Origin: Escherichia coli
GTDB taxonomy: Bacteria; Pseudomonadota; Gammaproteobacteria; Enterobacterales; Enterobacteriaceae
DNA: 64,000 nt
NCBI RefSeq assembly: GCF_024502345.1
Contig: NZ_JALDNN010000001.1
Reading direction: 5' to 3' (one strand)
Made by a program: the position numbers and the translations under genes. This document shows positions 1,919-59,624 of this stretch, in pieces. Below the pieces are notes generated by a model that searched no databases, was not told where the DNA came from, and saw only the letters and a list, made by a program, of their open reading frames with translations. The stretch's first letter is position 1, and each line of letters opens with the position of its first letter.

Positions 1919-3634
1919 ATGAATTCGTTACAAATCTTGAGTTTTGTCGGTTTTACGCTGCTGGTGGCGGTGATCACCTGGTGGAAGGTCCGCAAAACAG
2001 ATACCGGATCGCAACAAGGCTATTTTCTTGCCGGACGTTCACTAAAAGCGCCGGTTATTGCCGCTTCGTTAATGCTAACCAACCTTTCCACGGAACAACT
2101 GGTCGGCCTTTCCGGGCAGGCCTACAAAAGCGGCATGTCGGTGATGGGCTGGGAAGTGACTTCAGCGGTGACGCTGATCTTCCTCGCGCTAATCTTTTTA
2201 CCGCGCTATCTGAAGCGCGGCATTGCCACCATCCCCGATTTTCTGGAGGAACGTTATGATAAAACGACGCGTATTATCATCGACTTCTGCTTCCTCATTG
2301 CCACCGGCGTCTGCTTTCTGCCGATTGTTCTCTACTCCGGCGCGTTGGCGCTCAACAGCCTGTTTCACGTCGGGGAATCGCTACAGATTTCTCACGGTGC
2401 GGCTATCTGGCTACTGGTAATTTTGCTTGGTCTGGCGGGAATTTTGTATGCGGTGATCGGCGGACTGCGCGCAATGGTAGTGGCGGACTCCATCAACGGT
2501 ATTGGGCTGGTTATCGGCGGGTTGATGGTGCCGGTATTTGGCCTGATCGCGATGGGCAAGGGCAGCTTTATGCAGGGCATTGAGCAACTCACCACCGTTC
2601 ACGCCGAGAAATTAAACTCAATCGGTGGCCCGACCGATCCCTTGCCGATTGGCGCGGCATTTACCGGTTTGATTCTGGTGAACACCTTTTACTGGTGTAC
2701 AAATCAGGGCATCGTGCAACGCACGCTGGCGTCAAAAAGCCTGGCGGAAGGGCAAAAGGGGGCGCTGTTAACGGCGGTGCTGAAAATGCTCGACCCGCTG
2801 GTACTGGTGCTGCCAGGGTTGATTGCGTTTCATCTGTATCAGGATTTACCGAAAGCCGACATGGCCTACCCGACGCTGGTCAATAACGTTCTGCCAGTGC
2901 CAATGGTGGGTTTCTTCGGCGCGGTGTTATTTGGTGCGGTGATCAGTACCTTCAACGGCTTTCTGAATAGCGCCAGTACGTTATTCAGTATGGGTATTTA
3001 CCGTCGCATCATTAACCAGAATGCCGAGCCGCAGCAGCTGGTCACCGTCGGGCGCAAATTTGGTTTCTTTATCGCTATCGTTTCGGTGCTGGTCGCGCCG
3101 TGGATCGCCAACGCGCCGCAGGGGCTGTATAGCTGGATGAAACAGCTCAACGGCATTTACAACGTGCCGCTGGTTACCATCATCATTATGGGCTTTTTCT
3201 TCCCGCGCATCCCGGCGCTGGCGGCAAAAGTGGCGATGGGGATTGGCATAATCAGCTACATCACCATCAACTATCTGGTGAAGTTCGACTTCCATTTCCT
3301 CTATGTGCTGGCCTGTACGTTCTGCATCAACGTGGTCGTGATGCTGGTGATCGGTTTTATCAAACCGCGCGCCACGCCGTTCACCTTCAAAGATGCGTTT
3401 GCGGTGGACATGAAACCGTGGAGAAACGTCAAGATCGCGTCAATTGGCATCCTGTTCGCGATGATTGGCGTCTATGCCGGGCTGGCTGAATTCGGCGGCT
3501 ACGGTACGCGCTGGTTAGCGATGATCAGTTATTTCATTGCCGCCGTAGTGATTGTCTACCTGATTTTTGACAGCTGGCGGCATCGTCACGACCCAGCCGT
3601 AACCTTTACTCCCGACGCGAAGGATAGCCTATGA
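1919..3634 (+). CDS. yidK: sodium:solute symporter (SSS) family transporter
   Basis: 571-aa polytopic membrane ORF with an SSS-like pattern; stop overlaps the start of the next gene. Confidence 0.85.
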   Translation: MNSLQILSFVGFTLLVAVITWWKVRKTDTGSQQGYFLAGRSLKAPVIAASLMLTNLSTEQLVGLSGQAYKSGMSVMGWEVTSAVTLIFLALIFLPRYLKRGIATIPDFLEERYDKTTRIIIDFCFLIATGVCFLPIVLYSGALALNSLFHVGESLQISHGAAIWLLVILLGLAGILYAVIGGLRAMVVADSINGIGLVIGGLMVPVFGLIAMGKGSFMQGIEQLTTVHAEKLNSIGGPTDPLPIGAAFTGLILVNTFYWCTNQGIVQRTLASKSLAEGQKGALLTAVLKMLDPLVLVLPGLIAFHLYQDLPKADMAYPTLVNNVLPVPMVGFFGAVLFGAVISTFNGFLNSASTLFSMGIYRRIINQNAEPQQLVTVGRKFGFFIAIVSVLVAPWIANAPQGLYSWMKQLNGIYNVPLVTIIIMGFFFPRIPALAAKVAMGIGIISYITINYLVKFDFHFLYVLACTFCINVVVMLVIGFIKPRATPFTFKDAFAVDMKPWRNVKIASIGILFAMIGVYAGLAEFGGYGTRWLAMISYFIAAVVIVYLIFDSWRHRHDPAVTFTPDAKDSL

Positions 3635-5124
3635 AACGCCCCAATTTTCTGTTCATCATGACCGATACCCAGGCCACCAATATGGTCGGTTGCTATAGCG
3701 GTAAACCGCTGAATACGCAAAATATTGATAGTCTGGCGGCGGAAGGTATTCGCTTTAATTCCGCCTACACCTGTTCACCGGTTTGTACGCCTGCACGCGC
3801 CGGACTATTTACCGGTATCTACGCTAACCAGTCCGGCCCGTGGACCAACAACGTCGCGCCAGGCAAAAACATCTCCACTATGGGGCGCTACTTTAAGGAT
3901 GCCGGCTATCACACCTGTTACATCGGCAAATGGCATCTCGACGGTCATGACTATTTCGGCACTGGCGAGTGTCCGCCGGAGTGGGACGCTGATTACTGGT
4001 TCGATGGGGCGAACTACCTTAGCGAACTGACGGAAAAAGAGATCAGCCTGTGGCGCAATGGCCTAAACAGCGTTGAGGATTTACAGGCGAACCATATCGA
4101 CGGAACCTTCACCTGGGCGCACCGCATCAGCAATCGGGCGGTAGATTTTCTGCAACAGCCCGCGCGCGCCGAGGAACCCTTCCTGATGGTGGTTTCGTAT
4201 GATGAGCCGCATCACCCGTTCACCTGTCCGGTGGAGTATTTAGAGAAATACGCTGATTTTTACTACGAGCTGGGCGAGAAAGCACAGGATGACCTGGCTA
4301 ACAAACCGGAACATCACCGCTTATGGGCGCAGGCGATGCCATCGCCAGTCGGTGATGGCGGGCTTTATCACCATCCGCTCTATTTTGCCTGCAATGACTT
4401 TGTTGATGACCAAATCGGACGGGTCATCAATGCCTTAACGCCAGAGCAACGTGAAAATACGTGGGTTATTTATACATCCGATCACGGCGAAATGATGGGC
4501 GCACATAAGCTGATCAGTAAAGGAGCGGCGATGTATGACGACATCACCCGCATTCCGCTGATCATCCGTTCGCCGCAAGGGGAGCGGCGACAGGTCGATA
4601 CGCCAGTCAGTCATATCGATTTACTGCCGACAATGATGGCGCTGGCAGATATTGAAAAACCAGAGATTCTGCCGGGGGAAAATATCCTTGCCGTGAAAGA
4701 GCCACGCGGCGTGATGGTGGAATTTAACCGCTACGAGATTGAGCATGACAGCTTTGGCGGTTTTATTCCGGTGCGTTGCTGGGTGACGGATGACTTTAAA
4801 CTGGTACTCAACCTCTTCACCAGTGATGAACTTTACGATCGCCGTAATGACCCAAATGAAATGCATAACCTGATCGATGATATCCGTTTTGCAGACGTTC
4901 GCAGCAAAATGCATGACGCCTTATTGGATTACATGGACAAAATTCGCGATCCGTTCCGCAGTTACCAATGGAGTCTGCGTCCGTGGCGTAAAGATGCACG
5001 GCCGCGCTGGATGGGGGCGTTTCGTCCACGCCCACAAGATGGCTATTCGCCAGTGGTACGCGACTATGACACCGGCCTACCGACGCAAGGAGTGAAGGTG
5101 GAGGAGAAAAAACAGAAATTCTGA
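3631..5124 (+). CDS. yidJ: sulfatase (Cys-type, CTPAR active-site motif)
   Basis: The translation contains the sulfatase signature C-T-P-A-R-A-G-L-F-T-G and metal-binding DHG residues; 497 aa. Confidence 0.85.
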   Translation: MKRPNFLFIMTDTQATNMVGCYSGKPLNTQNIDSLAAEGIRFNSAYTCSPVCTPARAGLFTGIYANQSGPWTNNVAPGKNISTMGRYFKDAGYHTCYIGKWHLDGHDYFGTGECPPEWDADYWFDGANYLSELTEKEISLWRNGLNSVEDLQANHIDGTFTWAHRISNRAVDFLQQPARAEEPFLMVVSYDEPHHPFTCPVEYLEKYADFYYELGEKAQDDLANKPEHHRLWAQAMPSPVGDGGLYHHPLYFACNDFVDDQIGRVINALTPEQRENTWVIYTSDHGEMMGAHKLISKGAAMYDDITRIPLIIRSPQGERRQVDTPVSHIDLLPTMMALADIEKPEILPGENILAVKEPRGVMVEFNRYEIEHDSFGGFIPVRCWVTDDFKLVLNLFTSDELYDRRNDPNEMHNLIDDIRFADVRSKMHDALLDYMDKIRDPFRSYQWSLRPWRKDARPRWMGAFRPRPQDGYSPVVRDYDTGLPTQGVKVEEKKQKF

Positions 5125-5170: not shown

Positions 5171-5620
5171 TTAAACCAGCGAACCGCCGGTCAGGAAGGA
5201 AAAAATCAGGAATATCAGCAAAATGCTGCACACGATGCCGATACCAAAAAGCAAGGTATGAAAAGCCAGCGTCCCGCCGCCAAAAACCAGCGCGCCGCGA
5301 ATGCCCCAGCGATTTTCCTTACGCATACCGCCAATAAATGCGCAAAGTAGCGCAGCAATGGCCAGTGCGATACCGCTTTGATCGAGGATTTTATCGATAT
5401 CCATGTCCTCTTTTTTCTCCACAGTGGTAATTTTTTCGCCTTTTATTCCGGCGAGAAGACCTCTTTTAATTTCAGCCGTTTTGTCCGCCACGATGCTTTC
5501 AAGCGTTGGCGGTGGTGCGGAAAAAGGGCCGAATGAAAAGTGGATAATCCCCATCATTAAAGCGATGGCACCGAACAGCATGCCCAATGAACTGATTTTA
5601 TTTTGCGCTATGATACCCAT
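5171..5620 (-). CDS. yidI: inner membrane protein
   Basis: 149-aa hydrophobic ORF in the conserved position. Confidence 0.75.
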   Translation of the reverse strand: MGIIAQNKISSLGMLFGAIALMMGIIHFSFGPFSAPPPTLESIVADKTAEIKRGLLAGIKGEKITTVEKKEDMDIDKILDQSGIALAIAALLCAFIGGMRKENRWGIRGALVFGGGTLAFHTLLFGIGIVCSILLIFLIFSFLTGGSLV

Positions 5621-5728
5621 CTGACCTCCTTGTAGCGGATGGCAAAAGCATATCAGGAAACGGGCGGACGAAATTCTTAAAAAAAACCGCTAAAGATAGA
5701 GCGTTAGTGAAATTGCAAAGGAGCAACA

Positions 5729-6076
5729 ATGAAAATTTCCCGCCTTGGAGAAGCGCCCGATTACCGCTTCTCGCTGGCTAATGAGCGTACTTTTCTGGCG
5801 TGGATCCGTACCGCACTAGGATTTCTGGCGGCGGGGGTTGGGCTTGATCAACTTGCGCCAGATTTCGCCACGCCCGTCATTCGTGAACTGCTGGCGTTGT
5901 TGTTGTGTCTGTTTTCCGGCGGGTTAGCAATGTATGGCTACCTGCGCTGGTTACGCAATGAAAAAGCGATGCGTCTGAAAGAGGACCTGCCCTACACCAA
6001 CAGCTTATTAATCATTAGCTTAATATTGATGGTCGTGGCGGTGATCGTTATGGGACTGGTGTTGTATGCCGGATAG
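5729..6076 (+). CDS. yidH: DUF202-type small inner membrane protein
   Basis: 115-aa membrane ORF; overlaps the next gene by 11 bp. Confidence 0.75.
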   Translation: MKISRLGEAPDYRFSLANERTFLAWIRTALGFLAAGVGLDQLAPDFATPVIRELLALLLCLFSGGLAMYGYLRWLRNEKAMRLKEDLPYTNSLLIISLILMVVAVIVMGLVLYAG

Positions 6077-6428
6077 CCGCAAAGCCAGACGCATTGCCGA
6101 CCCAGGACTGCAGCCGGAGCGCACATCACTGGCGTGGTTTCGTACCATGCTGGGCTACGGCGCGTTGATGGCGTTGGCTATCAAACACAACTGGCACCAG
6201 GCGGGCATGTTATTCTGGATTTCGATTGGCATTCTCGCCATCGTGGCGCTGATCCTCTGGCACTACACCCGTAATCGCAATTTAATGGATGTCACGAATA
6301 GCGATTTTTCCCAATTTCACGTAGTCCGTGACAAATTTTTGATCTCCCTCGCGGTGTTATCTCTCGCAATACTGTTTGCTGTAACGCATATACATCAACT
6401 TATCGTATTTATTGAGAGAGTCGCATGA
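6066..6428 (+). CDS. yidG: small inner membrane protein
   Basis: 120-aa membrane ORF, apparently translationally coupled to yidH and yidF. Confidence 0.75.
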   Translation: MPDSRKARRIADPGLQPERTSLAWFRTMLGYGALMALAIKHNWHQAGMLFWISIGILAIVALILWHYTRNRNLMDVTNSDFSQFHVVRDKFLISLAVLSLAILFAVTHIHQLIVFIERVA

Positions 6429-6922
6429 CAGGAAGTCAGGTCATTGATGCTGAAGAGGACAGGCATAAACTGGTTGTAGAGTACAAGGATGCTCTGCAAC
6501 CTGCCGATTTTTATCACAATTTCAAACAGCGGGGCATCCGCTCCGTACAGCTCATTCCCTATCTTGAATTTGATGACCGGGGCGATCTGACGGCCGCTTC
6601 GGTGACAGCAGAGCTGTGGGGGAAATTTTTAATTGCCCTGTTCGAGTGTTGGGTGCGGGCAGATATCAGTCGTATCTCGATTGAGCTTTTTGACGCCACC
6701 TTACAAAAATGGTGTGGCAGCGAAAACCCGCAACCGCGCCGTGACTGCCAGGCGTGCGACTGGCATCGCCTGTGCCCGCACGCTCGGCAGGAGACGCCAG
6801 ACAGCGTGCTTTGTGCGGGCTATCAGGCGTTTTATTCTTACTCCGCACCGCATATGCGGGTGATGCGTGATCTGATAAAGCAGCATCGTTCTCCCATGGA
6901 GCTGATGACGATGCTGCGGTGA
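6425..6922 (+). CDS. yidF: Cys-rich C-terminal (SPASM-like) fragment of an anaerobic sulfatase-maturase-like protein
   Basis: 165-aa ORF with the cysteine cluster CQACDWHRLCP but no CxxxCxxC radical-SAM motif. Confidence 0.7.
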   Translation: MTGSQVIDAEEDRHKLVVEYKDALQPADFYHNFKQRGIRSVQLIPYLEFDDRGDLTAASVTAELWGKFLIALFECWVRADISRISIELFDATLQKWCGSENPQPRRDCQACDWHRLCPHARQETPDSVLCAGYQAFYSYSAPHMRVMRDLIKQHRSPMELMTMLR

Positions 6923-6929
6923 CGTGCGC

Positions 6930-8114
6930 TTAAACGGGCTGCCCCTGATGCGACATCCGCGTCGCCAGCGGCAGCCAGCACAGCACGATCAACAATCCCA
7001 TTAAGGTCATCAATAACCCCAGGCTACCCTGACCGGTTTGCGGCAACATCGCAGAGAGCGACGCCAGCACGCCGGAACCAATGTTTTGCAGACCGCCGAC
7101 CAGCGCGCCAGCCGTGCCCGCCAGGAAGGGGAACGGCTCCATCGCGCCGCTGGTCGCCAGCGGAAACAGCATCCCGGCACCGAAAAAGAACAGCGCGGCG
7201 GGAACGAGCAGCGTCCAGACATTCATCACGCCAAACCAGTCGGGGATCCACATCAGCAAGCCAGCCAGCAGGCAGCAGATAACCGACTGCCACATTAACG
7301 TGGAGAAGCGTTTATTGGGACGTCCGGCAAACCATGCGCCAAAAAACGCTGCCGGAATCGGCAGAATAAACAAAATACTGACCGTCATACTGCTCAGCCC
7401 TAACACCGCGCCCATCAGCACGCCGGAGCAGGCTTCAAAGGCGGCAATCCCGGCCAGACCGCCAATCAGCATCAGCAAATAACAGTTAAAACCGCTGTTA
7501 CCGAAAAGCGTTTTATAACTGGTAAGCAGGCGCGTGCGCGGTGCATCGACAGGACGCGTTTCCGGCATCCAGCGGGCCATACTGAAGGTCACACCAGCAC
7601 AAAGAACCAACAAAAAGAGATAACAGGCGCGCCAGTTCCACATCGTATCCAGCAGACCGCCGATTAGCGGTGCGAGCAACGGACTGACGAGAATCCCCAT
7701 GTTTAACAGGCTGTTAGCATGGCGCAACTGTGTCCGTTCATATAAATCTCGCGGCAAAGTACGCGCCATTACGCCGCCAACGCCGGTGCCCATCCCCTGC
7801 ATCGCGCTGGCGGCAATCAACACCGTCAAACTGGAGGTCGTGACCGCGACCAGCGTTGCCAGCATAAAAATGGACATTCCGACGAGGATCACCGGTCGGC
7901 GACCCACACGGTCGGAAATCGGGCCATAAAACAGCTGTGAGACACCGTAAGTCAGCAGATAAGCGCCCATTACGCTCTGCACCGCCCCTTCACGGACGTT
8001 GAGATCGCGCGCCATATCGGCAATAGCTGGAATATAAATGGTTTGCGCCATCTGACCGACGGCCACGAGTAATACCAACATCAATAACAAATTGACGTTT
8101 CTATGCCTTTTCAT
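6930..8114 (-). CDS. emrD: MFS multidrug efflux transporter
   Basis: 394-aa 12-TM MFS protein; start trimmed to MKRH. Confidence 0.9.
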   Translation of the reverse strand: MKRHRNVNLLLMLVLLVAVGQMAQTIYIPAIADMARDLNVREGAVQSVMGAYLLTYGVSQLFYGPISDRVGRRPVILVGMSIFMLATLVAVTTSSLTVLIAASAMQGMGTGVGGVMARTLPRDLYERTQLRHANSLLNMGILVSPLLAPLIGGLLDTMWNWRACYLFLLVLCAGVTFSMARWMPETRPVDAPRTRLLTSYKTLFGNSGFNCYLLMLIGGLAGIAAFEACSGVLMGAVLGLSSMTVSILFILPIPAAFFGAWFAGRPNKRFSTLMWQSVICCLLAGLLMWIPDWFGVMNVWTLLVPAALFFFGAGMLFPLATSGAMEPFPFLAGTAGALVGGLQNIGSGVLASLSAMLPQTGQGSLGLLMTLMGLLIVLCWLPLATRMSHQGQPV

Positions 8115-8304
8115 TATCACGGATGCTTTTATAAAAATAATTAGAATAAGTCACTACGCATTCCCATAAATGCGGGAGAGGAATCTATCACATTGATGAA
8201 TGCTAGCCAGATATGTGCCGGGAATGGCGAAAAGCAAAACGGCAGAATATGTAAACAAAAGCGGCAATAAATGTTGCCGGAAGGGATTACGTGCGAACTG
8301 TAAC

Positions 8305-8417
8305 CCTCTCCCTGAAAGGGCGAGGGGGAAACCACCGTTCCCTTTCAGAAAATGAGCTAAACATTGCACGGGACGGTCCCCTCGCCCCTTTGGGGAGAGG
8401 GCTAGGGTGAGGGGCAC
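8305..8417. repeat. REP/BIME-like palindromic repeat cluster
   Basis: CCCTCTCCC..GGGCGAGGGGG at 8305-8329 is the reverse complement of CCCCTCGCCC..GGGAGAGGG at 8378-8400. The spurious ORFs 8154..8468 and 8287..8475 are artefacts of this repeat. Confidence 0.6.
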
Positions 8418-8532
8418 AGGCAGCGCAGGTGCAAACATTCTGCTGGTAGAAGAAGCCCCCAACTCCAACCCGCACGCTAAATATAAAAGGGGAGCGGTTA
8501 CCCGCTCCCCTTTGGTGCGACTTGAATCTGAA

Positions 8533-8622
8533 TTACTTCAGGTATTTCAGAACAGCATCAAGCAGTTGCAGTGCTGCAACAATGAGTTTGAGGATAAGAA
8601 TGGCGATATCCACCAGGCTCAT
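8533..8622 (-). CDS. tisB: SOS-induced type I toxin TisB (29 aa)
   Basis: The reverse complement translates to MSLVDIAILILKLIVAALQLLDAVLKYLK followed by a stop. It is below the 60-aa cut-off of the ORF track. Confidence 0.9.
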   Translation of the reverse strand: MSLVDIAILILKLIVAALQLLDAVLKYLK

Positions 8623-8975: not shown

Positions 8976-9057
8976 TTTCAGTGTTGACATAATACAGTGT
9001 GCTTTGCGGTTACCAGCCGCAGGCGGCTGACGAAACCTCGCTCCGGCGGGGTTTTTT
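8976..9057 (+). ncRNA. istR: IstR-1-like antitoxin sRNA (approximate ends)
   Basis: A TATACT -10 at 8962-8967 is followed by a ~75-nt segment ending in a hairpin and U-tract (9036-9057). The segment carries a 21/22-nt match (GTTGACATAAYACAGTGTGCT) to sequence inside the tisAB 5-prime UTR at 8733-8754, so the two transcripts would be complementary. Confidence 0.55.
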
Positions 9058-9186
9058 GTTACCTGCAATTCAGTGCAAAACGTGATCAACCCCTCAATTT
9101 TCCCTTGCTGAAAAATTTTCCATTGTCTCCCCTGTAAAGCTGTGCTTGTATAAATATTGTTAAACACAAAACCAACAAGGTCCCCA

Positions 9187-9285
9187 ATGACTACTTCCAT
9201 GTTCAACGCAAAACTACTACCAACTGCGCCATCCGCCGCAGTGGTCGTCGTGCGTGTGGTGGTGGTCGTCGGCAATGCGCCGTAG
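9187..9285 (+). CDS. ivbL: ilvB operon leader peptide (32 aa, Val/Leu-rich)
   Basis: Translates to MTTSMFNAKLLPTAPSAAVVVVRVVVVVGNAP; an attenuator hairpin follows. Confidence 0.9.
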   Translation: MTTSMFNAKLLPTAPSAAVVVVRVVVVVGNAP

Positions 9286-9311
9286 GGACTGGAACAACAC
9301 ACGATTCCAAA

Positions 9312-9343
9312 ACCCCGCCGGCGCAAACCGGGCGGGGTTTTTC
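9312..9343 (+). terminator. ilvB attenuator (rho-independent terminator)
   Basis: CCCCGCCGG..CCGGGCGGGG stem followed by a T-tract, between ivbL and ilvB. Confidence 0.8.
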
Positions 9344-9390
9344 GTTTAAGCACCTCCCGGAAAGTCGGCCCAGAAGAAAAGGACTGGAGC

Positions 9391-11079
9391 ATGGCAAGTT
9401 CGGGCACAACATCGACGCGTAAGCGCTTTACCGGCGCAGAATTTATCGTTCATTTCCTGGAACAGCAGGGCATTAAGATTGTGACGGGCATTCCGGGCGG
9501 TTCTATCCTGCCTGTTTACGATGCCTTAAGCCAAAGCACGCAAATCCGCCATATTCTGGCCCGTCATGAACAGGGCGCGGGATTTATCGCTCAGGGGATG
9601 GCGCGCACCGACGGTAAACCGGCGGTCTGTATGGCCTGTAGCGGACCGGGTGCGACTAACCTGGTGACCGCCATTGCCGATGCGCGGCTGGACTCCATCC
9701 CGCTGATTTGCATCACCGGTCAGGTTCCCGCCTCGATGATCGGCACCGACGCCTTCCAGGAAGTGGACACCTACGGCATCTCTATCCCCATCACCAAACA
9801 CAACTATCTGGTCAGACATATCGAAGAACTCCCGCAGGTCATGAGCGATGCCTTCCGCATTGCGCAATCAGGCCGCCCAGGCCCGGTGTGGATAGACATT
9901 CCTAAGGATGTGCAAACGGCAGTTTTTGAGATTGAAACACAGCCCGCTATGGCAGAAAAAGCCGCCGCCCCCGCCTTTAGCGAAGAAAGCATTCGTGACG
10001 CAGCGGCGATGATTAACGCTGCCAAACGCCCGGTGCTTTATCTGGGCGGCGGTGTGATCAATGCGCCCGCACGGGTGCGTGAACTGGCGGAGAAAGCGCA
10101 ACTGCCTACCACCATGACTTTAATGGCGCTGGGCATGTTGCCAAAAGCGCATCCGTTGTCGCTGGGTATGCTGGGGATGCACGGCGTGCGCAGCACCAAC
10201 TATATTTTGCAGGAGGCGGATTTGTTGATAGTGCTCGGTGCGCGTTTTGATGACCGGGCGATTGGCAAAACCGAGCAGTTCTGTCCGAATGCCAAAATTA
10301 TTCATGTCGATATCGATCGCGCAGAGCTGGGTAAAATCAAGCAGCCGCATGTGGCGATTCAGGCTGATGTTGATGACGTGCTGGCGCAATTGATCCCGCA
10401 GGTGGAAGCGCAACCGCGTGCAGAGTGGCACCAGTTGGTAGCGGATTTGCAGCGCGAATTCCCGTGTCCAATCCCGAAAGCGTGCGATCCATTAAGCCAT
10501 TACGGCCTGATCAACGCCGTTGCCGCCTGTGTCGATGACAATGCGATTATCACCACCGATGTGGGTCAGCATCAGATGTGGACCGCGCAAGCTTATCCGC
10601 TCAATCGCCCACGCCAGTGGCTGACCTCCGGTGGGCTGGGCACGATGGGTTTTGGCCTGCCTGCGGCGATTGGCGCGGCGCTGGCGAACCCGGATCGCAA
10701 AGTGTTGTGTTTCTCCGGCGACGGCAGCCTGATGATGAATATTCAGGAGATGGCGACCGCCAGTGAAAATCAGCTGGATGTCAAAATCATTCTGATGAAC
10801 AACGAAGCGCTGGGGCTGGTGCATCAGCAACAGAGTCTGTTCTACGAGCAAGGCGTTTTTGCCGCCACCTATCCGGGCAAAATCAACTTTATGCAGATTG
10901 CCGCCGGATTCGGCCTCGAAACCTGTGATTTGAATAACGAAGCCGATCCGCAGGCTGCATTGCAGGAAATCATCAATCGCCCTGGCCCGGCGCTGATCCA
11001 TGTGCGCATTGATGCCGAAGAAAAAGTTTACCCGATGGTGCCGCCAGGTGCGGCGAATACTGAAATGGTGGGGGAATAA
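9391..11079 (+). CDS. ilvB: acetolactate synthase I, large subunit
   Basis: 562-aa ThDP enzyme with the GDGS..N motif region; conserved position. Confidence 0.95.
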   Translation: MASSGTTSTRKRFTGAEFIVHFLEQQGIKIVTGIPGGSILPVYDALSQSTQIRHILARHEQGAGFIAQGMARTDGKPAVCMACSGPGATNLVTAIADARLDSIPLICITGQVPASMIGTDAFQEVDTYGISIPITKHNYLVRHIEELPQVMSDAFRIAQSGRPGPVWIDIPKDVQTAVFEIETQPAMAEKAAAPAFSEESIRDAAAMINAAKRPVLYLGGGVINAPARVRELAEKAQLPTTMTLMALGMLPKAHPLSLGMLGMHGVRSTNYILQEADLLIVLGARFDDRAIGKTEQFCPNAKIIHVDIDRAELGKIKQPHVAIQADVDDVLAQLIPQVEAQPRAEWHQLVADLQREFPCPIPKACDPLSHYGLINAVAACVDDNAIITTDVGQHQMWTAQAYPLNRPRQWLTSGGLGTMGFGLPAAIGAALANPDRKVLCFSGDGSLMMNIQEMATASENQLDVKIILMNNEALGLVHQQQSLFYEQGVFAATYPGKINFMQIAAGFGLETCDLNNEADPQAALQEIINRPGPALIHVRIDAEEKVYPMVPPGAANTEMVGE

Positions 11080-15006: not shown

Positions 15007-16398
15007 ATGCTGGCTTTCTTAAACCAGGTTCGCAAGCCGACCCTGGACCTTCCGCTCGAAGTGCGGCGCAAAATGTGGTTCAAACCGTTCATGCAATCCT
15101 ACCTGGTGGTCTTTATCGGCTACCTGACGATGTACCTGATTCGCAAGAACTTTAACATCGCGCAGAACGACATGATCTCGACCTACGGGTTGAGCATGAC
15201 GCAGCTGGGGATGATCGGCCTGGGTTTCTCCATCACTTATGGCGTGGGTAAAACGCTGGTTTCCTACTACGCCGACGGCAAAAACACCAAACAATTCCTG
15301 CCGTTCATGCTTATCCTGTCTGCCATTTGTATGCTGGGCTTCAGTGCCAGTATGGGCAGCGGCTCGGTTAGCCTGTTTCTGATGATTGCCTTCTACGCCT
15401 TAAGCGGCTTTTTCCAGAGCACCGGCGGTTCGTGCAGTTACTCCACCATCACCAAATGGACGCCGCGTCGTAAGCGCGGGACCTTCCTCGGTTTCTGGAA
15501 TATTTCTCACAACCTTGGCGGTGCAGGCGCAGCAGGTGTGGCGCTGTTCGGGGCAAATTACCTGTTCGATGGCCATGTCATCGGCATGTTTATCTTCCCG
15601 TCGATTATCGCGCTGATTGTCGGTTTTATCGGCCTGCGTTACGGCAGCGACTCCCCGGAATCTTATGGCCTCGGCAAAGCTGAAGAACTGTTCGGCGAGG
15701 AGATCAGCGAAGAGGACAAAGAGACAGAATCTACCGATATGACCAAGTGGCAGATCTTTGTTGAGTATGTGCTGAAAAACAAAGTGATCTGGCTGCTGTG
15801 CTTCGCCAACATTTTCCTCTATGTGGTACGTATTGGTATCGACCAGTGGTCAACCGTATACGCGTTCCAGGAACTGAAACTCTCTAAAGCGGTGGCGATT
15901 CAGGGCTTTACGCTGTTTGAAGCTGGTGCGCTGGTCGGTACGCTGCTGTGGGGCTGGCTCTCTGACCTGGCGAACGGTCGCCGTGGCCTGGTGGCCTGCA
16001 TCGCGCTGGCGCTGATTATCGCCACGCTCGGTGTGTATCAACATGCCAGCAACGAATATATCTATCTGGCTTCTCTCTTTGCGTTGGGTTTCCTGGTCTT
16101 TGGCCCGCAATTGTTGATTGGTGTGGCTGCTGTTGGTTTTGTACCTAAAAAAGCGATTGGTGCTGCCGATGGTATTAAAGGCACCTTTGCTTACCTGATT
16201 GGCGACAGCTTTGCCAAGTTAGGTCTGGGAATGATTGCCGATGGGACGCCGGTATTCGGCCTTACCGGCTGGGCAGGCACCTTCGCCGCGCTGGATATCG
16301 CCGCGATTGGTTGTATCTGCCTGATGGCGATAGTGGCGGTGATGGAAGAACGCAAAATCCGCCGCGAGAAAAAAATTCAGCAGTTGACAGTGGCATAA
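15007..16398 (+). CDS. uhpT: hexose-6-phosphate:phosphate antiporter
   Basis: 463-aa MFS organophosphate:Pi antiporter. Confidence 0.95.
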
Positions 16399-51601: not shown

Positions 51602-53989
<2,388 letters not shown>

Positions 53990-54280
53990 GGTTCTCTCCC
54001 TAAAAATCTGTCTGGCAGGGTAGCGATTTGTGCGCATTGTCACGATTGAGATTTTTTAAGGTGAGGGGGAATTGATAACTTGTAGTTATGTGAAATCGCT
54101 ATTTTCTGTAGCGGAGATGCATTCTTCTGACTTCTTGTCTGAGAAAATGCATAAGAAAAAATAGGTTAAAACTGAGGGGTGGAAAAGAAAGGTGCAATGT
54201 TTAGCTATTGTATTCACCGCACCTGGACTTTGGCTTACGCATCGGGTGTCTCAATCAACAAAAAGAGTTTTTAGTTTCTG

Positions 54281-54592
54281 CTATTTTTTCTCTGTAATTT
54301 TTACACTGTTTTCCAACTGCTTAATGCTGACCTGCGGGGTCGGCAACTCCTCAGGCATGGTTCCGCCAAGTTCCTGAATGGTTTGCCTCACCTTGCGACC
54401 TACGTCAAAGTGTGTGGTGTTAGCTTGCTGTTTTGAATTCACGCCATCCCGCTTAAGTTTTTCTTCTGTTTGGGTAGCTACTTTGAACCGGATAACCTCG
54501 AATGGGTGACTGGTGAGATTGGTGCGCCGCCGTTCGATGTGTCGGGTGTGGCCTACCTGCTTCATGGCATGGTGTCGTTCGATAAGCGCCAC
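54281..54592 (-). CDS. small ORF of uncertain reality; its C-terminal ~60 codons look protein-like and may be the remnant of the gene displaced by the islet
   Basis: GTG-initiated 103-aa ORF with a charged C-terminus (TQTEEKLKRDGV...GGTMPEELPTPQVSIKQLE); its 5-prime half overlaps a plus-strand ORF. Confidence 0.3.
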   Translation of the reverse strand: MALIERHHAMKQVGHTRHIERRRTNLTSHPFEVIRFKVATQTEEKLKRDGVNSKQQANTTHFDVGRKVRQTIQELGGTMPEELPTPQVSIKQLENSVKITEKK

Positions 54593-54858
54593 CAGATCGA
54601 ATCAACCCGGCGCACACTGGAAAGCATGGTTGCTGGTGGACTGCTTGAGCGGGTGACAGTGTATGAATCGCGCCAGATACGGCGCGGCGGTGAGACTAAC
54701 GCAACGGTCGTGCGCTACGGTTTACCCGGTCAGTGCGCTGTTATGCGCGATACTGGCGGCGCTGATAGCCTGGCTGATTCCGGTAATACTGCGGAGTTAG
54801 GTCTACCGGCATAGCTTACCCGTGGAGAAATGAATCATCGAATGAGTTTGGTCGGGAG

Positions 54859-55539
54859 TTATTCCACCAGCAAAAATGGCGTTGCCCGGTCTATGACGTT
54901 GATGCCAATTAACGAGCTAACATTTCGACCATTCACAATGCTATCCCGTTCAAGCAAATGCGCTATTTTTTCTACTTCATACCAGTATTGAGCCATGAGG
55001 GCTTTGGTCTTTTCAACGAGTTTAGAAAGCATTAACTCCCTGTTAATTTGCTTATTTGTAGCGCAGATTAAATCGAGCATGTCATTTACGTTAGCCATGT
55101 CATAGCGATGAGGTAGCGAATACTTTTTGTTGAAAATATCGTTGTTTTCGTAAAGGGCTTCGCTTACTGGTCCGGCGAGGGATACAAAAGCGGCCTTTTT
55201 TGCATCGCGCTTTATACCATCCGCATAGTAACGTATGAAAGGGATAACTTTACCATTCTGCCCAACTACACCAGATTTACTATCCCGCAAACGCCCGAGA
55301 TCGTGGCTGTGAATTATGCTGTGTTTAACAACGCCCAAACACTTGGCCTCATGTACATGTTCGCCAGCAACGTAACCGTATTCATCCATAACGGCGATAA
55401 CAATATTGGTTTCACGCCCACCGATATGACCAGGAATAACCGGGACAATTGTGGCAAATTCATTACCGTTAATTGTGCCCTGATAGGCGTTCAGATGAGG
55501 GGCGGCCTCAGAAATTAATCTGCTTTTTTCGATGTTCAT
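54859..55539 (-). CDS. hypothetical protein (226 aa, His-rich central segment), cargo of the integrase islet
   Basis: Clean ORF with a TAA stop; contains HVHEAKC and HSIIHSHD segments; no family recognised. Confidence 0.5.
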   Translation of the reverse strand: MNIEKSRLISEAAPHLNAYQGTINGNEFATIVPVIPGHIGGRETNIVIAVMDEYGYVAGEHVHEAKCLGVVKHSIIHSHDLGRLRDSKSGVVGQNGKVIPFIRYYADGIKRDAKKAAFVSLAGPVSEALYENNDIFNKKYSLPHRYDMANVNDMLDLICATNKQINRELMLSKLVEKTKALMAQYWYEVEKIAHLLERDSIVNGRNVSSLIGINVIDRATPFLLVE

Positions 55540-55761
55540 TTTCAGTCTCCGTTAGGCGGCGGTGAGATTGTCCGGGTACCACATGGTTGACACTTAGATC
55601 CAACACGTAGTCGTACCTATCCAGTGAAAACCATTCCATCACATCGCCGTATTTAGCCCGTTTCATAACGCCACCTTTTACGCTGCGCCTTATTTTGTGA
55701 TTGAGCCAGGCGGTAAGGCTTCCCGCTTTTCGCCCCGTCGGGCTAGACTCAATCTATTCAG

Positions 55762-57021
55762 TTAGTTCGCCCTTCTGAGAGGCGTCACGTTGTAATCTTC
55801 GCCCTTCTCCAGAGCCACCAGCAAGCCCGCCCACTGTGTTAACGCAGCCCGTCGCTCGTCAAAGTATTGGTGACGGTTATAAATCCCCTCTACGCCCTTA
55901 ATGCGATGATTGAGGCATCGTTCCGCCACTACCGGATCAACGCCCAGCGCTGCTAAATGGGTGCGGGCCGTGCGTCGGAAGTCGTGAATCGTGAAATTAG
56001 GCACATCCGGCATTTCGGCGCGAACCTTAGCCAGTGCTACGGGCAGGGTGCTTTCCTGAATATGGGGGATCATGCGGTTTTGCATCTTTCTGGCTGGCAG
56101 TACCCATGCGCTGTTGCATGAGAACGTTTTAAGCTCTCTCAGCCATTCGACGGCTGGCGGTGCTAATGGGATGTCTATAGCGTCGCCGTTTTTGCTGCGT
56201 TCCTCTGGCAAGCGCCATACGGCTTTATCAAAATCGAACTCCTCCCAGCGGGCGGCGCATAACTCCATTTTGCGGACGCATAACGCTAACAGTAATTTGA
56301 ACGTGATTTCGTTCTGGCGACTGAATCCCTTAGCCGTGCGCATGGCTTTGAATAGCTGGATTAACTCATCGCGGGTTAACCAGCGGTCACGGGCAACTTC
56401 TTTCCCTCCGGCGTCTGCCACCTCAAAGGCTGAACAGGGGTTAATCTCCAGCGCGTGCCGTTTGATTCCGTAGTCGAATATGCGGCGCGTCCATCTCAGC
56501 ACGTCCGTTGCTATGGTCGGCGCTCCACGGTCAACAATACTTTTCAGCATGTCGTCGATATGGCGCGGCTTCACGTCCTCTACCTTCATGCTGCCAATGC
56601 AGGGGTTTATATCTTTGTCGATACGGCGGCGGAGTATATCTGGGTGCTTCCAGCGCGGCAGGATCTGACGCTCAAAGTATTCAGCGGCAAGCTCTGAAAC
56701 GCGCATGGCATTCTTCTCTGCTTCGATCTTCGCCAGTGCTTCGGCTTTCCGTTCCTGCTTCTCTCCTGCAACGTCATAGCCCAACGCAACGCGAGCCGAT
56801 AGCTCTTTGGCTGTCTCTCTGGCCTTTGATAGTGATAGCTCGGCATATGAGCCGATAACCATTGCTCGCTGCTTACCTGCGAATTTATAGCGAAAGCGCC
56901 AGAAAGGGACTGTGTAGTTTTTGGGGTAGCAAATATAAAGGCCGTTGCCATCGGCCCTTCCTTCAAATCTATCTCCGGCCTTTATCCATGCGCGGATCTG
57001 CATGTCTGTAATCTTTGGCAT
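55762..57021 (-). CDS. P4-type tyrosine integrase
   Basis: N-terminus MPKITDMQIRAWIK..GLYICYP is typical of the arm-binding domain; C-terminal catalytic HDFRRT..Y residues; start trimmed from 57057. Confidence 0.85.
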   Translation of the reverse strand: MPKITDMQIRAWIKAGDRFEGRADGNGLYICYPKNYTVPFWRFRYKFAGKQRAMVIGSYAELSLSKARETAKELSARVALGYDVAGEKQERKAEALAKIEAEKNAMRVSELAAEYFERQILPRWKHPDILRRRIDKDINPCIGSMKVEDVKPRHIDDMLKSIVDRGAPTIATDVLRWTRRIFDYGIKRHALEINPCSAFEVADAGGKEVARDRWLTRDELIQLFKAMRTAKGFSRQNEITFKLLLALCVRKMELCAARWEEFDFDKAVWRLPEERSKNGDAIDIPLAPPAVEWLRELKTFSCNSAWVLPARKMQNRMIPHIQESTLPVALAKVRAEMPDVPNFTIHDFRRTARTHLAALGVDPVVAERCLNHRIKGVEGIYNRHQYFDERRAALTQWAGLLVALEKGEDYNVTPLRRAN

Positions 57022-57048
57022 TGCGAATACCTGAACATTGAATGGGGG

Positions 57049-57102
57049 TGTGTACATAAACCGATGTACATAAAACCCATTATGTACACCACTATGTACA
57101 CG
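57049..57102. repeat. four TGTACA palindromic iterons upstream of the islet integrase
   Basis: TGTACATAAA, TGTACATAAA, TGTACACC and TGTACACG spaced 12-17 bp apart. Confidence 0.6.
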
Positions 57103-57210
57103 GCAATCGTGCGCTTTGTTGCTTCCTCATGATAGCCCATGATAACAAAAAAGCCCGACAAAATGCGGGCTTTGCTGGTTTTGTGTATCTTTGTGATAGC
57201 TCTTAAATAT

Positions 57211-58074
57211 TTACTCGATATTCTGAATCTGCTCGCGCATCTGCTCAATCAACACTTTCAGCTCAATCGCGGAGTTTGTCACTTCGGCATTGATAGACTT
57301 CGACGCAAGAGTGTTCGACTCGCGGTTGAACTCCTGCATCATAAAGTCCAGACGACGACCAACGGCTTCTTTTTTCTTCAGAATGTTGTAGGTCTCTTTG
57401 ACATGCGCTTCGAGGCGGTCCAGCTCTTCGGCAACGTCAATTCGTTGTGCCAGCAGAACCAACTCCTGCTCCAGACGGTTGTTTTCCAACTGCACCTGAG
57501 CATCTTCCAGCTTCGCGACCAAGCGTTCACGCTGCCATTGCAGGATTTCCGGCATATGGGAGCGGACTTTGACCACTTCGGCGGTGACGCCTTCCAGACG
57601 CTGCTCGATCAATGCTTTCAGTGCCTGACCTTCGGTTTCGCGCGCGACAATAAAGTCGTCCAGGGTGCCATCCAACGCCGCGAGAATTTCAGCGGCAATG
57701 GCGTCAAGATCCTGCTCCTGGGCTGCCATCACGCCCGGCCAGCGCAGAATATCAACCGGGTTGATTTCCCCTTCGTCACTCTGCATTTTTACCCAGTTCG
57801 CGGCAGTTACCAGCTGTTTAGCCAGTTTTTCGTTGAGGATCAGCTCACCTTGCGCGCTAACATCTGGCTCATAGCGCAGGGTACATTCCACTTTACCGCG
57901 CGTCAGGCGAGAACGAATACGCTCACGAACGACAGGTTCAAGGCTACGGAACTGCTCCGGCAGACGAAAGTAAGTTTCCAGATAACGCTGGTTTACCGAG
58001 CGCATTTCCCAGGTTGCGCTCCCCCATTCACCCTTGATTTCACGCCGGGCGTAGGCGGTCATACTGCGGATCAT
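57211..58074 (-). CDS. yicC: YicC-family stress-induced protein
   Basis: 287 aa, MIRSMTAYARREIKGEWGSATWEMRSVNQRYLE. Confidence 0.95.
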   Translation of the reverse strand: MIRSMTAYARREIKGEWGSATWEMRSVNQRYLETYFRLPEQFRSLEPVVRERIRSRLTRGKVECTLRYEPDVSAQGELILNEKLAKQLVTAANWVKMQSDEGEINPVDILRWPGVMAAQEQDLDAIAAEILAALDGTLDDFIVARETEGQALKALIEQRLEGVTAEVVKVRSHMPEILQWQRERLVAKLEDAQVQLENNRLEQELVLLAQRIDVAEELDRLEAHVKETYNILKKKEAVGRRLDFMMQEFNRESNTLASKSINAEVTNSAIELKVLIEQMREQIQNIE

Positions 58075-58200
58075 AGACGTTCCTGTTTATAAAAGGAGAG
58101 GTGGAAGGATTATAGCCATCGATGCCTTGTCAGGATAGGAATAACCGCCGGAAGTCCGTATAATGCGCAGCCACATTTGTTTCAAGCCGGAGATTTCAAT

Positions 58201-58917
58201 ATGCGTCCAGCAGGCCGTAGCAATAATCAGGTGCGTCCCGTTACCCTGACTCGTAACTATACAAAACATGCAGAAGGCTCGGTGCTGGTCGAATTTGGCG
58301 ATACCAAAGTATTGTGTACCGCCTCTATTGAAGAAGGCGTGCCTCGCTTCCTGAAAGGTCAGGGCCAGGGCTGGATCACCGCAGAATACGGCATGCTGCC
58401 ACGTTCTACCCACACCCGTAACGCTCGTGAAGCAGCGAAAGGTAAGCAGGGTGGACGCACAATGGAAATCCAGCGTCTGATCGCCCGTGCTCTTCGTGCG
58501 GCAGTAGATTTGAAAGCGCTGGGTGAGTTCACCATTACGCTGGACTGCGACGTGCTTCAGGCTGATGGTGGCACGCGTACCGCTTCGATTACGGGTGCCT
58601 GTGTGGCGCTGGCAGATGCGCTACAGAAGCTGGTGGAAAACGGCAAGCTGAAAACCAATCCAATGAAAGGGATGGTAGCCGCGGTTTCTGTCGGGATTGT
58701 GAACGGCGAAGCGGTTTGCGATCTGGAATACGTTGAAGACTCAGCCGCAGAGACCGACATGAACGTAGTGATGACCGAAGACGGGCGCATCATTGAAGTG
58801 CAGGGGACGGCAGAAGGCGAGCCGTTCACCCATGAAGAGTTACTCACCTTGTTGGCGCTGGCCCGAGGGGGAATCGAATCCATTGTAGCGACGCAGAAGG
58901 CGGCGCTGGCAAACTGA
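58201..58917 (+). CDS. rph: ribonuclease PH (intact, wild-type C-terminus)
   Basis: 238 aa ending ...ATQKAALAN, so it is not the K-12 MG1655 rph-1 frameshift allele. Confidence 0.95.
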
Positions 58918-58922
58918 TTTTT

Positions 58923-58952
58923 AAGGCGACTGATGAGTCGCCTTTTTTTTGT
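58923..58952 (+). terminator. pyrE attenuator (rho-independent terminator)
   Basis: AAGGCGACTGATGAGTCGCCTT hairpin followed by a T8 run between rph and pyrE. Confidence 0.8.
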
Positions 58953-58982
58953 CTGTAGAAAAGTAAGATGAGGAGCGAAGGC

Positions 58983-59624
58983 ATGAAACCATATCAGCGC
59001 CAGTTTATTGAATTTGCGCTTAGCAAACAGGTATTAAAGTTTGGTGAGTTTACGCTGAAATCCGGGCGCAAAAGCCCCTATTTCTTCAACGCCGGGCTGT
59101 TTAATACCGGGCGCGATCTGGCACTGTTAGGCCGTTTTTACGCTGAAGCATTGGTGGATTCCGGCATTGAGTTCGATCTGCTGTTTGGCCCTGCTTACAA
59201 AGGGATCCCGATTGCTACCACAACCGCCGTGGCGCTGGCGGAGCATCATGACCTGGACCTGCCGTACTGCTTTAACCGCAAAGAGGCAAAAGACCACGGT
59301 GAAGGCGGCAATCTGGTCGGTAGCGCGTTACAAGGACGCGTAATGCTGGTGGATGATGTGATCACCGCCGGAACGGCGATTCGCGAGTCGATGGAAATTA
59401 TTCAGGCCAATGGCGCGACGCTTGCTGGCGTATTGATTTCGCTTGATCGTCAGGAACGCGGGCGCGGCGAGATTTCGGCGATTCAGGAAGTTGAGCGTGA
59501 TTACAACTGCAAGGTGATCTCTATCATTACCCTGAAAGACTTGATTGCTTACCTGGAAGAGAAGCCAGAAATGGCGGAACATCTGGCGGCGGTTAAGGCC
59601 TATCGCGAAGAGTTCGGCGTTTAA
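58983..59624 (+). CDS. pyrE: orotate phosphoribosyltransferase
   Basis: Start trimmed to [13 protein letters not shown], giving 213 aa; PRPP-binding [14 protein letters not shown]. Confidence 0.95.

Follow-up and report, generated by a model that had tools for sequence, protein, structure and literature searches.

An integrase islet beside yicC in Escherichia coli is very probably the immobile, decayed remnant of a PICI

Introduction

The PICIs of Escherichia coli have been described as sharing the gene order int-alpA-antirepressor-ash-primase-perC. Two catalogued islands are integrated next to yicC: EcCIRM13514 occupies the attC 'yicC-dinD' with the core GAGCAGATTCAA, and CfCIP10159 lies at 'yicC-yicG' with the core ATCGAGTAAG (Fillol-Salom et al., 2018, ISME J, Table S1, PMC6092414). 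The same study reports one E. coli attC that is common to PICIs and P4 elements, and supplies the criteria for Gram-negative PICIs that we have used here: a terminal integrase at a dedicated attC that is not used by prophages, direct att repeats, alpA downstream of int, a pri-rep primase, and a length of about 8-15 kb without phage structural or lysis genes. A literature search on an integrase at yicC/dinD returned only an unrelated resistance paper; the relevant record is held in the supplement of PMC6092414.

Here we analyse the region between yicG and yicC in a 64,000-nucleotide stretch of E. coli DNA (the window). A first-pass annotation had read this region as a compact integrase islet with a single cargo gene and had proposed it as a candidate for a defence or addiction function. 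Our analysis upholds the acquired, integrase-borne nature of the islet, its non-tRNA site and the displacement of dinD, and goes against both the single cargo and the proposed function. The islet is very probably an immobile, decayed remnant of a PICI that was inserted at the end of yicC.

Results

Extent of the islet and state of the host genes

Sequence alignment shows that homology to K-12 ends at 54479 and restarts at 57211, exactly at the yicC stop codon, leaving 2731 bp of non-K-12 DNA between 54480 and 57210. This segment takes the place of 846 bp of the K-12 chromosome, comprising the 5' part of dinD and the dinD-yicC spacer, and agrees with the earlier estimate of about 2.7 kb for the islet. 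The host sequence on the yicG side (53001-54479) is 98.3% identical to a K-12-type sequence (L002 1958-3434), with 95-99% matches in 4338 E. coli records. No intact dinD is present, as the annotation had noted; the 3' 199 bp remain and encode exactly the 65 C-terminal residues of K-12 DinD, whereas a deletion has taken the promoter and the 5' 626 bp. DinD, truncated in the source strain, is the sole PADLOC match of the neighbourhood (PDC-S13). The small overlapping ORFs at 54044-54858 are accounted for by the dinD stump and an internal piece of an island ORF. Neither a tRNA nor a tmRNA gene was found within 52000-59000, which rules out tRNA-targeted integration; the target is the 3' end of yicC (Table 1).

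Table 1. Features of the islet and its borders, in window coordinates.
Feature	Position	Strand	Basis or remark
Host yicG-dinD intergenic spacer, outside the island	54044..54280	.	Alignment to K-12-type sequence
dinD stump, last 65 codons and stop	54281..54479	-	dinD annotated at the matching position in thousands of genomes
Fragment (codons ~12-108) of an island hypothetical ORF of 119/123 aa	54480..54767	+	Homology to TUM13936 island
Native 3' flank of the M41-like gene	54768..54858	-	Homology to TUM13936 island
226-aa ORF, residues 47-226: codons 44-223 of the native 223-aa M41-like protein	54859..55401	-	Protein alignments
226-aa ORF, residues 1-46: first 46 codons of the antA/antB antirepressor gene	55402..55539	-	Joined in frame at J3
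Upstream leader of antA, native, with GGAG ribosome-binding site	55540..55578	-	Homology to ET979
DUF6387-family int-proximal gene, first 30 codons	55577..55666	-	Continues out of frame into a 52-aa ORF, 55508..55666
int-alpA RNA motif (Rfam RF02996)	55687..55753	-	Directly downstream of int
P4-family tyrosine integrase, intact, 419 aa	55762..57021	-	Only complete island gene remaining
Four TGTACATA(A) repeats, two per orientation	57050..57101	.	Overlap a promoter-like site for int
Intrinsic-terminator-like hairpin, island-supplied, in place of the native yicC terminator	57150..57173	-	Sequence unlike K-12 yicC downstream
att core (attR) CAGATTCAGAATATCGAGTAA, the last 21 nt of yicC	57211..57231	-	Homology to circular attP starts at 57231

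The integrase and the attachment site

The integrase, which the annotation had correctly placed and assigned to the P4 type, retains the catalytic R/K/HxxR/H/Y residues and matches PHROG 1 'integrase' (E 7e-62). The Pfam domains recorded for an identical protein are Arm-DNA-bind_3, Phage_int_M and Phage_integrase, and the integrase of the ET979 island is 99.8% identical at the amino acid level. alpA itself is lost and only the int-alpA RNA motif survives; cmscan aligns this motif to the full-length model (1-71) at E 7e-11, with 59.5 bits where the gathering score is 35.8. The motif is said to originate in Weinberg et al. 2017, and a literature search on int-alpA found no useful description.

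The promoter-like site for int is located at 57106-57079. In a circular form of the island (L013), the same TGTACA repeats lie on either side of the attP core, and the repeats upstream of int are probably arm-type Int binding sites belonging to the P' arm. The att core is present in the window as a single copy and is duplicated at attL in TUM13936, RM13514 and L004. No attL is found in the window; it is present in the full-length islands and in the sister contigs L004, L006 and L008. Because attL, alpA and the primase are gone, the islet can neither move nor replicate.

Full-length relatives and the parental family

Full-length islands at yicC are found in E. coli TUM13936, ET979 and RM13514; they are 12-14 kb long and have no structural genes. 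A circular excised form of 12,152 bp, with the full gene set and an attP that contains the core, has been deposited as a "plasmid" (pZ1323CEC0013_1-4). The gene content, the published site and this circular attP record identify the parental family, as far as sequence comparison can, as PICI. For induction, excision and packaging by a helper phage, a further hallmark of PICIs, the circular record provides indirect evidence at the level of the family. Of the hallmarks listed above, the window retains the terminal integrase at a dedicated attC not used by prophages, the site being that of EcCIRM13514 and CfCIP10159. There is one core copy and no direct repeat; alpA falls within the J4 deletion (ET979 L001 4186-5665), and the primase (TUM13936 L003 10404-12845) lies inside the 6.4-kb J3 deletion. 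The element measures 2.7 kb, outside the 8-15 kb range, and as its relatives are 12-14 kb long it is a PICI remnant and not a PICI.

Derivation from a P4-like satellite instead of a PICI would fit the P4-type architecture of the integrase (Arm-DNA-bind_3 plus Phage_integrase), the 'phage/plasmid primase, P4 family' and AlpA regulator encoded by the full-length relatives, and the use of one E. coli attC by both kinds of element (Fillol-Salom 2018, PMC6092414). We regard this origin as very unlikely, since the islands at this site follow the gene order described for E. coli PICIs, one of them has been catalogued as a PICI, and the P4 hallmarks are missing: no Sid, Psu or Delta PHROGs were found among the TUM13936 island proteins and none is annotated in ET979, RM13514 or the circular form, nor is there a capsid-related family in the TUM13936 proteins or the ET979 and RM13514 annotations.

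A mosaic of five segments

Five short segments of a 12-14 kb PICI make up the islet. They map to positions 7297-7588, 9001-9636 and 16042-16226 of the TUM13936 island and 5666-7299 of ET979 with 95-99.8% identity and clean breakpoints. In the window, 54476-54767 corresponds to TUM13936 (L003) 7297-7588 (96.6%), 54766-55401 to TUM13936 (L003) 9001-9636 (99.8%), 55394-55578 to ET979 (L001) 4001-4185 (99.5%), and 55577-58500, which runs on past the islet, to ET979 (L001) 5666-8589 (98.9%). Because none of the database islands has all five segments at 99% identity or higher, the ancestor was reconstructed from two relatives, ET979-like on the int side and TUM13936-like on the distal side. Each of the four junctions has 2-4 bp of microhomology: AGCT at J1 (54476-54479), TA at J2 (54766-54767), TAAC at J3 (8 bp with one mismatch) and TA at J4 (55577-55578).

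The junctions have left truncated and composite reading frames. A 114-aa ORF (54470..54814) begins at a TTG within the dinD stump, runs through the hypothetical-ORF fragment and ends with 16 codons that belong to the next segment. The fragment itself has no family match in Pfam, NCBIfam, PADLOC or PHROGs. The DUF6387 fragment translates as residues 1-30 of the ET979 DUF6387 protein and diverges afterwards. The native 119/123-aa ORF, the DUF6387 protein and a 57-aa ORF gave no informative family matches. Each junction cuts an ORF that is elsewhere full-length and conserved across genera, ruling out that the window layout is ancestral and the long islands derived. What had been taken for a compact single-cargo element is thus all that at least four or five internal deletions have left of a PICI of 12-14 kb.

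The 226-aa ORF is a chimera

The 226-aa ORF described in the annotation is present (54859..55539, minus strand), with a ribosome-binding site (GGAG) 8 nt upstream and a frame that is open over 226 codons. Rather than a carried cargo gene, it is what the 6.4-kb deletion made by joining two truncated genes in frame. In protein alignments its residues 1-46 are identical to the ET979 AntA/AntB protein, and residues 47-226 are about 99% identical to a native 223-aa protein. These parents rule out a diverged DinD, one of the identities that the annotation had considered; the other, a housekeeping protein, does not apply either. The AntA/AntB-type domain is incomplete, with the first 46 of 277 residues kept and no Pfam match.

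The native 223-aa parent resembles the FtsH-type peptidases. The top 50 PDB matches of its AF2 model are all FtsH/AFG3L2/YME1 protease domains, and in Pfam and TIGRFAM it has only sub-threshold M41 matches, over residues 20-43. A HEAGHA motif at residues 27-32 is invariant or nearly so in 13 native homologues. The motif falls in the part deleted at J3, so the 226-aa ORF lacks the zinc-binding HEAGHA helix; the position of the HEXXH is occupied by HIGGR, which derives from AntA. The M41 profile (PF01434 / TIGR01241) does not match the 226-aa ORF, and searches of Pfam, NCBIfam, PADLOC and PHROGs gave nothing beyond a chance match to RPN5_C (E 0.07), which excludes it as a recognisable family member. 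PADLOC-DB 2.0 likewise has no match for the 226-aa ORF, its native parent, Int or the 114-aa ORF. Neither a defence nor an addiction function finds support in these results, and the chimera is most likely an inert fusion product; we infer its lack of expression and function.

Clonal spread and alternative readings

The exact chimeric protein occurs on 66 contigs in public data, and J2-J4 are found at 100% identity in at least seven independently assembled isolate or metagenome contigs (NCBI, ENA). J1 is seen only in this window, and the junction of the chimera is in no complete RefSeq E. coli genome. Four sister contigs (L004, L006, L008 and L010) represent the direct precursor state of the islet: they are 100% identical to the window but still have the 1093 bp that include attL, and their dinD is intact. 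Decay continues in the lineage, another contig of which, L005, has lost 128 bp within int. Present at 100% identity in other assemblies of the lineage, flanks included, the chimera is real but clonal.

With a good ribosome-binding site and an open frame, the chimera could still yield a protein, and its fixation at 100% identity in one lineage is compatible with use. The AntA(1-46)::M41-domain(ΔHEAGHA) fusion might be expressed and have acquired a separate role, such as that of a catalytically dead decoy against helper phage or incoming PICIs, or the orphan integrase, working in trans at attR, might capture incoming satellites of the same specificity; we hold either to be highly improbable.

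Defence genes are known from the accessory regions of PICIs, and a functional compact islet, in which an integrase is paired with one cargo protein of 226 aa for phage defence or toxin-like addiction, would be in keeping with an open frame of 226 codons with a ribosome-binding site, adjoining an intact integrase and identical in sequence across many assemblies. Such an islet is nonetheless extremely unlikely. The frame is a deletion-made fusion of two truncated genes that lacks the HEAGHA of its parent family and has no PADLOC, PHROGs, NCBIfam or Pfam match; the conservation is clonal and extends equally to the flanks; L005 is already losing int; and an element without attL is not a mobile cassette. 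That the mosaic is an assembly artefact, with reads collapsed or mis-joined over a full-length island, has next to no probability: several breakpoints do lie within 1.2 kb and are missing from complete RefSeq E. coli genomes, but the recurrence of J2-J4 in independent assemblies rules it out, the exact protein is on 66 contigs, and all four junctions, including the window-only J1, show microhomology typical of real deletions.

Discussion

The PICI remnant can be traced to a reconstructed ancestor, and we infer the following order of events. The P4-family integrase of the island would have recombined its attP with an attB core consisting of the final ~21 nt of yicC, so that the inserted island provides yicC with a new 3' end and a new terminator. 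The ancestral element, 12-14 kb long, was very probably organised as int - DUF6387 - alpA - hyp - antA/antB - DUF4222 - ash - small ORFs - primase - hyp - M41-like protease - perC - ... - attL. The J4 deletion removed most of DUF6387, alpA and the next gene. The J3 deletion took out 6.4 kb that began at codon 47 of antA, included the primase and ended at codon 43 of the M41-like gene, with the 226-aa ORF as its in-frame scar, still carrying the antA ribosome-binding site and first 46 codons. The J2 deletion accounts for perC and its neighbours. The J1 deletion, in this strain only, took a further 1093 bp, including attL, the start of a 123-aa ORF and the 5' three-quarters of dinD. Decay may thus have been stepwise, with regulation and replication lost first and attL and the neighbouring dinD in a later deletion, and only int, the putative arm-type sites, the int-alpA RNA motif and attR remain intact.

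The locus reflects genome decay of the ordinary kind; it is no compact defence module. It offers a tidy, fully reconstructible example of a phage satellite inactivated in place by microhomology deletions, and a caution that an ORF beside an integrase without a database match can be a deletion scar and not novel cargo. The host gene lost along with attL, dinD, is itself a PADLOC-listed defence candidate. The lead worth pursuing lies outside the window, in the intact 223-aa stand-alone FtsH-like protease-domain protein found in the accessory region of many enterobacterial PICIs.

Compared with the FtsH-type peptidase family M41, this native parent has the HEAGHA motif and a predicted FtsH-protease-like fold, but it has neither the AAA+ module nor the membrane anchor, and its similarity beyond the motif is below the Pfam thresholds; the version in the window is entirely without the motif-bearing helix. 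With P4-like satellites the locus shares the integrase family, the AlpA regulator and P4-family primase of its relatives, and a phage-satellite lifestyle, whereas integration here is at the 3' end of a protein-coding gene and not at a tRNA gene. The closest catalogued island, EcCIRM13514 of E. coli O145:H28 RM13514, has the same chromosomal site, the same att core at the yicC end and the same orientation (yicC, int, then the remaining island), with integrases that are 87.8% identical in amino acid sequence; alpA, antA/antB, the primase and perC are common to it and the relatives. EcCIRM13514 is, however, an 11.9-kb island with attL and attR, whereas in the window int, attR, the int-alpA RNA motif and four gene fragments are all that is left, alpA, the primase, perC and attL having been lost together with most of the host dinD. 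The nearest sequences are the ET979 island, in which int, attR and the start of DUF6387 are 98.9-99.4% identical to the window at the nucleotide level, the TUM13936 island, with an M41-like segment that is 99.8% identical, and pZ1323CEC0013_1-4, the attP of which has the same core and TGTACA arm repeats. These three are complete elements of 12-14 kb, and the islet in the window is a deletion derivative of their kind.

Layout of the islet and its junctions with host DNA

An open reading frame (ORF) scan of the yicG-yicC interval recovered the integrase, the 226-aa ORF and the several short overlapping ORFs reported there by the first-pass annotation. Homology to K-12 ends at 54479 and restarts exactly at 57211, the stop codon of yicC (BLASTN against the K-12-type locus L002); 2731 bp in the window stand in place of 846 bp in K-12, which comprise the 5' part of dinD and the dinD-yicC spacer, and the region is therefore not identical in the two. 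The suspected absence of an intact dinD was borne out, as the remaining stump encodes just the C-terminal 65 residues of K-12 DinD, and the site is indeed not a tRNA site, with no tRNA gene near the islet. The adjacent ligB is split by a frameshift into ORFs of 347 and 215 aa (51688-53375, +; overlap 52728-52731). A 345 + 215 split is also called in the sister contigs L005, L006, L008 and L009, which argues for a genuine lineage-specific pseudogenisation and against a sequencing error.

Features of the yicG-yicC interval and blocks shared with related islands (window coordinates unless a locus is named)
Feature	Position	Strand	Remarks
yicG	53372..54043	-	ORF scan
yicG-dinD spacer and last 199 bp of dinD	54044..54479		host DNA
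103-aa ORF	54281..54592		dinD stump extended into island DNA
114-aa ORF	54470..54814		codons ~12-108 of island 119/123-aa ORF; TTG start borrowed from dinD stump; foreign tail
Block 1	54476-54767		TUM13936 L003 7297-7588
Block 2	54766-55401		TUM13936 L003 9001-9636, 99.8%
226-aa ORF	54859..55539	-	ORF scan
Block 3	55394-55578		L003 16042-16226 and ET979 L001 4001-4185 (99.5%)
52-aa ORF	55508..55666		first 30 DUF6387 codons, then out of frame
Block 4	55577-57210		ET979 L001 5666-7299
int-alpA RNA (Rfam RF02996)	55687-55753	-	59.5 bits; directly downstream of int
Integrase ORF, 419 aa	55762..57021	-	ORF scan
Four TGTACA(T/C)A repeats of int-proximal arm	57050-57101		kept in window
Terminator supplied by island	57150-57173
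yicC	57211..58074	-	ORF scan; rph and pyrE farther out
Host dinD of K-12-type genome	L002 3236-4060	-

A mosaic of island fragments joined by deletions

Among 5426 complete E. coli genomes, not one has the whole islet; its pieces are common, and 393 of these genomes (~7%) have a related integrase. ET979 shares with the window, at 98.9-99.4% identity, the integrase, the int-yicC DNA and the opening 30 codons of a DUF6387 gene. TUM13936 carries an island of ~13 kb between an intact dinD and yicC, in the order int, hypothetical (DUF6387 position), AlpA-type HTH, hypothetical, antA/antB, DUF4222, ash, four small ORFs, P4-family primase, two hypotheticals (one a 223-aa protein), PerC, pRiA4b-ORF3-like, a 119-aa ORF and a second, island-borne dinD paralogue. 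BLASTN against both islands divides the islet into four consecutive blocks. All junctions are clean breakpoints with microhomologies of AGCT, TA, TAAC and TA, the signature of deletions by illegitimate recombination. Two small ORFs of the ET979 island (L001 1921-2495) are named 'nicotinic acetylcholine receptor subunit beta' and 'ubiquinol-cytochrome C reductase' in RefSeq, names that are almost certainly spurious and propagated.

The integrase is the only complete gene of the islet; it is 99.8% identical to that of ET979 and has the catalytic residues R, K, HxxR, H and Y. The RF02996 match fits the int-alpA class of elements, and this RNA motif has outlasted the loss of alpA.

The 226-aa ORF is a fusion of two island genes

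Protein alignment shows that the 226-aa ORF is neither DinD nor a housekeeping protein: its first 46 residues reproduce the start of the ET979 AntA/AntB antirepressor exactly, and residues 47-226 share ~99% identity with positions 44-223 of the 223-aa protein from TUM13936. The two parts join in frame at the third junction (~55394-55401), where 6.4 kb including the primase are deleted. Judged from these alignments, the ORF is a fusion scar made by deletion.

The native gene (L003 9094-9765, -; homologues P0047-P0070) lies just after the primase in the accessory regions of phage-inducible chromosomal islands (PICIs). The family measures 219-243 aa, mostly 223, and occurs in E. coli, Salmonella, Enterobacter, Citrobacter, Shigella and Dickeya; it has no counterpart in PADLOC or PHROGs. 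The 223-aa protein goes under 'peptidase M41 family' in further records, and its M41 profile matches are sub-threshold and lie around HEAGHA (native residues 27-32), a motif invariant or nearly so in all 13 natives aligned. For an AlphaFold model of the native protein (pTM 0.70), the top 50 PDB matches are without exception protease domains of FtsH, AFG3L2 and YME1 (TM ~0.5), from which we identify the predicted parent as a stand-alone FtsH-like metalloprotease domain. In the window protein unrelated AntA residues occupy the HEAGHA position, and this copy has thus lost the predicted catalytic helix. The antA ribosome-binding site is kept upstream, so translation may still occur.

The first-pass annotation saw a single-cargo islet and a candidate for defence or addiction. 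What is present instead is an orphan integrase with gene fragments left by deletions from a phage satellite, and nothing supports such a function; the 226-aa ORF has no match in Pfam, NCBIfam, PADLOC or PHROGs.

Sister contigs preserve the immediate precursor

Exact copies of the 226-aa sequence occur on 66 public contigs and of the integrase on 63; seven places were retrieved. Four of the seven (L004, L006, L008 and L010) match the window at 99.9-100% identity over 54475-58500, as do L004, L006 and L008, the contigs reaching that far, over 53001-54479. Between both blocks these three have an additional 1093 bp, in which an intact host dinD, attL and the beginning of the 123-aa ORF lie. The islet in the window is thus this 3-kb mini-island after one further deletion (junction at 54476-54479) that took out attL and 626 bp of dinD; the comparison shows that the remnant is real and that its immediate precursor exists. 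Decay is also seen in L005, where a 128-bp deletion in int (~3084-3095) leaves ORFs of 175 and 219 aa, and L007 has an ISL3-family element beside the remnant (5551-6771) and different downstream genes past the 123-aa ORF. ET979 likewise has an ISKox3 (ISL3-like) element near attL. Since the flanking core genes are identical too, conservation of the chimera is taken to reflect clonal descent, not selection.

Integration of the parental element at the end of yicC

In TUM13936 the 3' end of yicC is duplicated, and K-12-like sequence, having run through dinD and the spacer, stops 21 nt into the duplicate. The core CAGATTCA(G)A is common to the yicC end and the attL of TUM13936, RM13514 and L004; the window has one copy. 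A circular record of 12,152 bp from strain Z1323CEC0013 (NZ_CP148430.1, 1-12152), deposited as plasmid pZ1323CEC0013_1-4, holds the whole PICI gene set (int, AlpA-type HTH, antA/antB, ash, primase and perC). Its attP, between perC and int, contains CAGATTCAGAATATCGAATAA with TGTACA(T/C)A repeats on both sides, and window homology to it begins exactly at the core (57231). This record looks like an excised, circular PICI caught by assembly. The duplicated yicC end and an attP with the same core point to Int-mediated attP x attB recombination in the last codons of yicC as the route of integration, which would restore the reading frame (QIQNIE*) and bring a new terminator. The L004 attL (~5290-5320) has an 11-nt deletion just past the core (CAGATTCAGA joined to CTCGTAAC, versus CAGATTCAGAACATTGAATAACTCGTAAC in TUM13936), and even the precursor mini-island may therefore be impaired for excision.

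Comparison with known satellites

Five traits define Gram-negative PICIs: AlpA, a primase/replicase, transcription in one direction, a lack of structural genes, and an integrase with its own dedicated attC (Fillol-Salom et al., 2018; PMC6092414). The window locus falls short of a PICI in attL, alpA, primase and size, and we class it as what is left of one. A known kind of satellite at a known site has been cut to an orphan integrase and gene fragments by at least four to five deletions, one of which produced the 'unrecognised' 226-aa ORF. What the first-pass annotation observed is thus correct in all its details, and its meaning is ordinary. An independent role for the fusion protein or for the orphan integrase is highly improbable.

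In full-length yicC islands a dinD paralogue lies beside attL (L003 6305-7129, -; ~76% nucleotide identity to host dinD), and PDC-S13, a candidate defence family in PADLOC, is matched both by this paralogue (E 3e-126) and by K-12 DinD (E 2e-121). Host dinD could be a relic of former satellite cargo at this hotspot.

Integrase and primase of the full-length relatives belong to P4-like families; despite this, the family is PICI-type and not P4-type, since no homologues of Sid, Psu or Delta were found among the island proteins. Table S1 of PMC6092414 lists CfCIP10159 (core ATCGAGTAAG) at 'yicC-yicG', the Citrobacter site being given without dinD, and EcCIRM13514 (11.9 kb, core GAGCAGATTCAA) at 'yicC-dinD'. 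The RM13514 locus has the same architecture, with an integrase 87.8% identical to that of the window, and the genes described for EcCIMP1 likewise comprise an integrase, AlpA, an antirepressor, Ash, a primase and PerC (PMC11773190).
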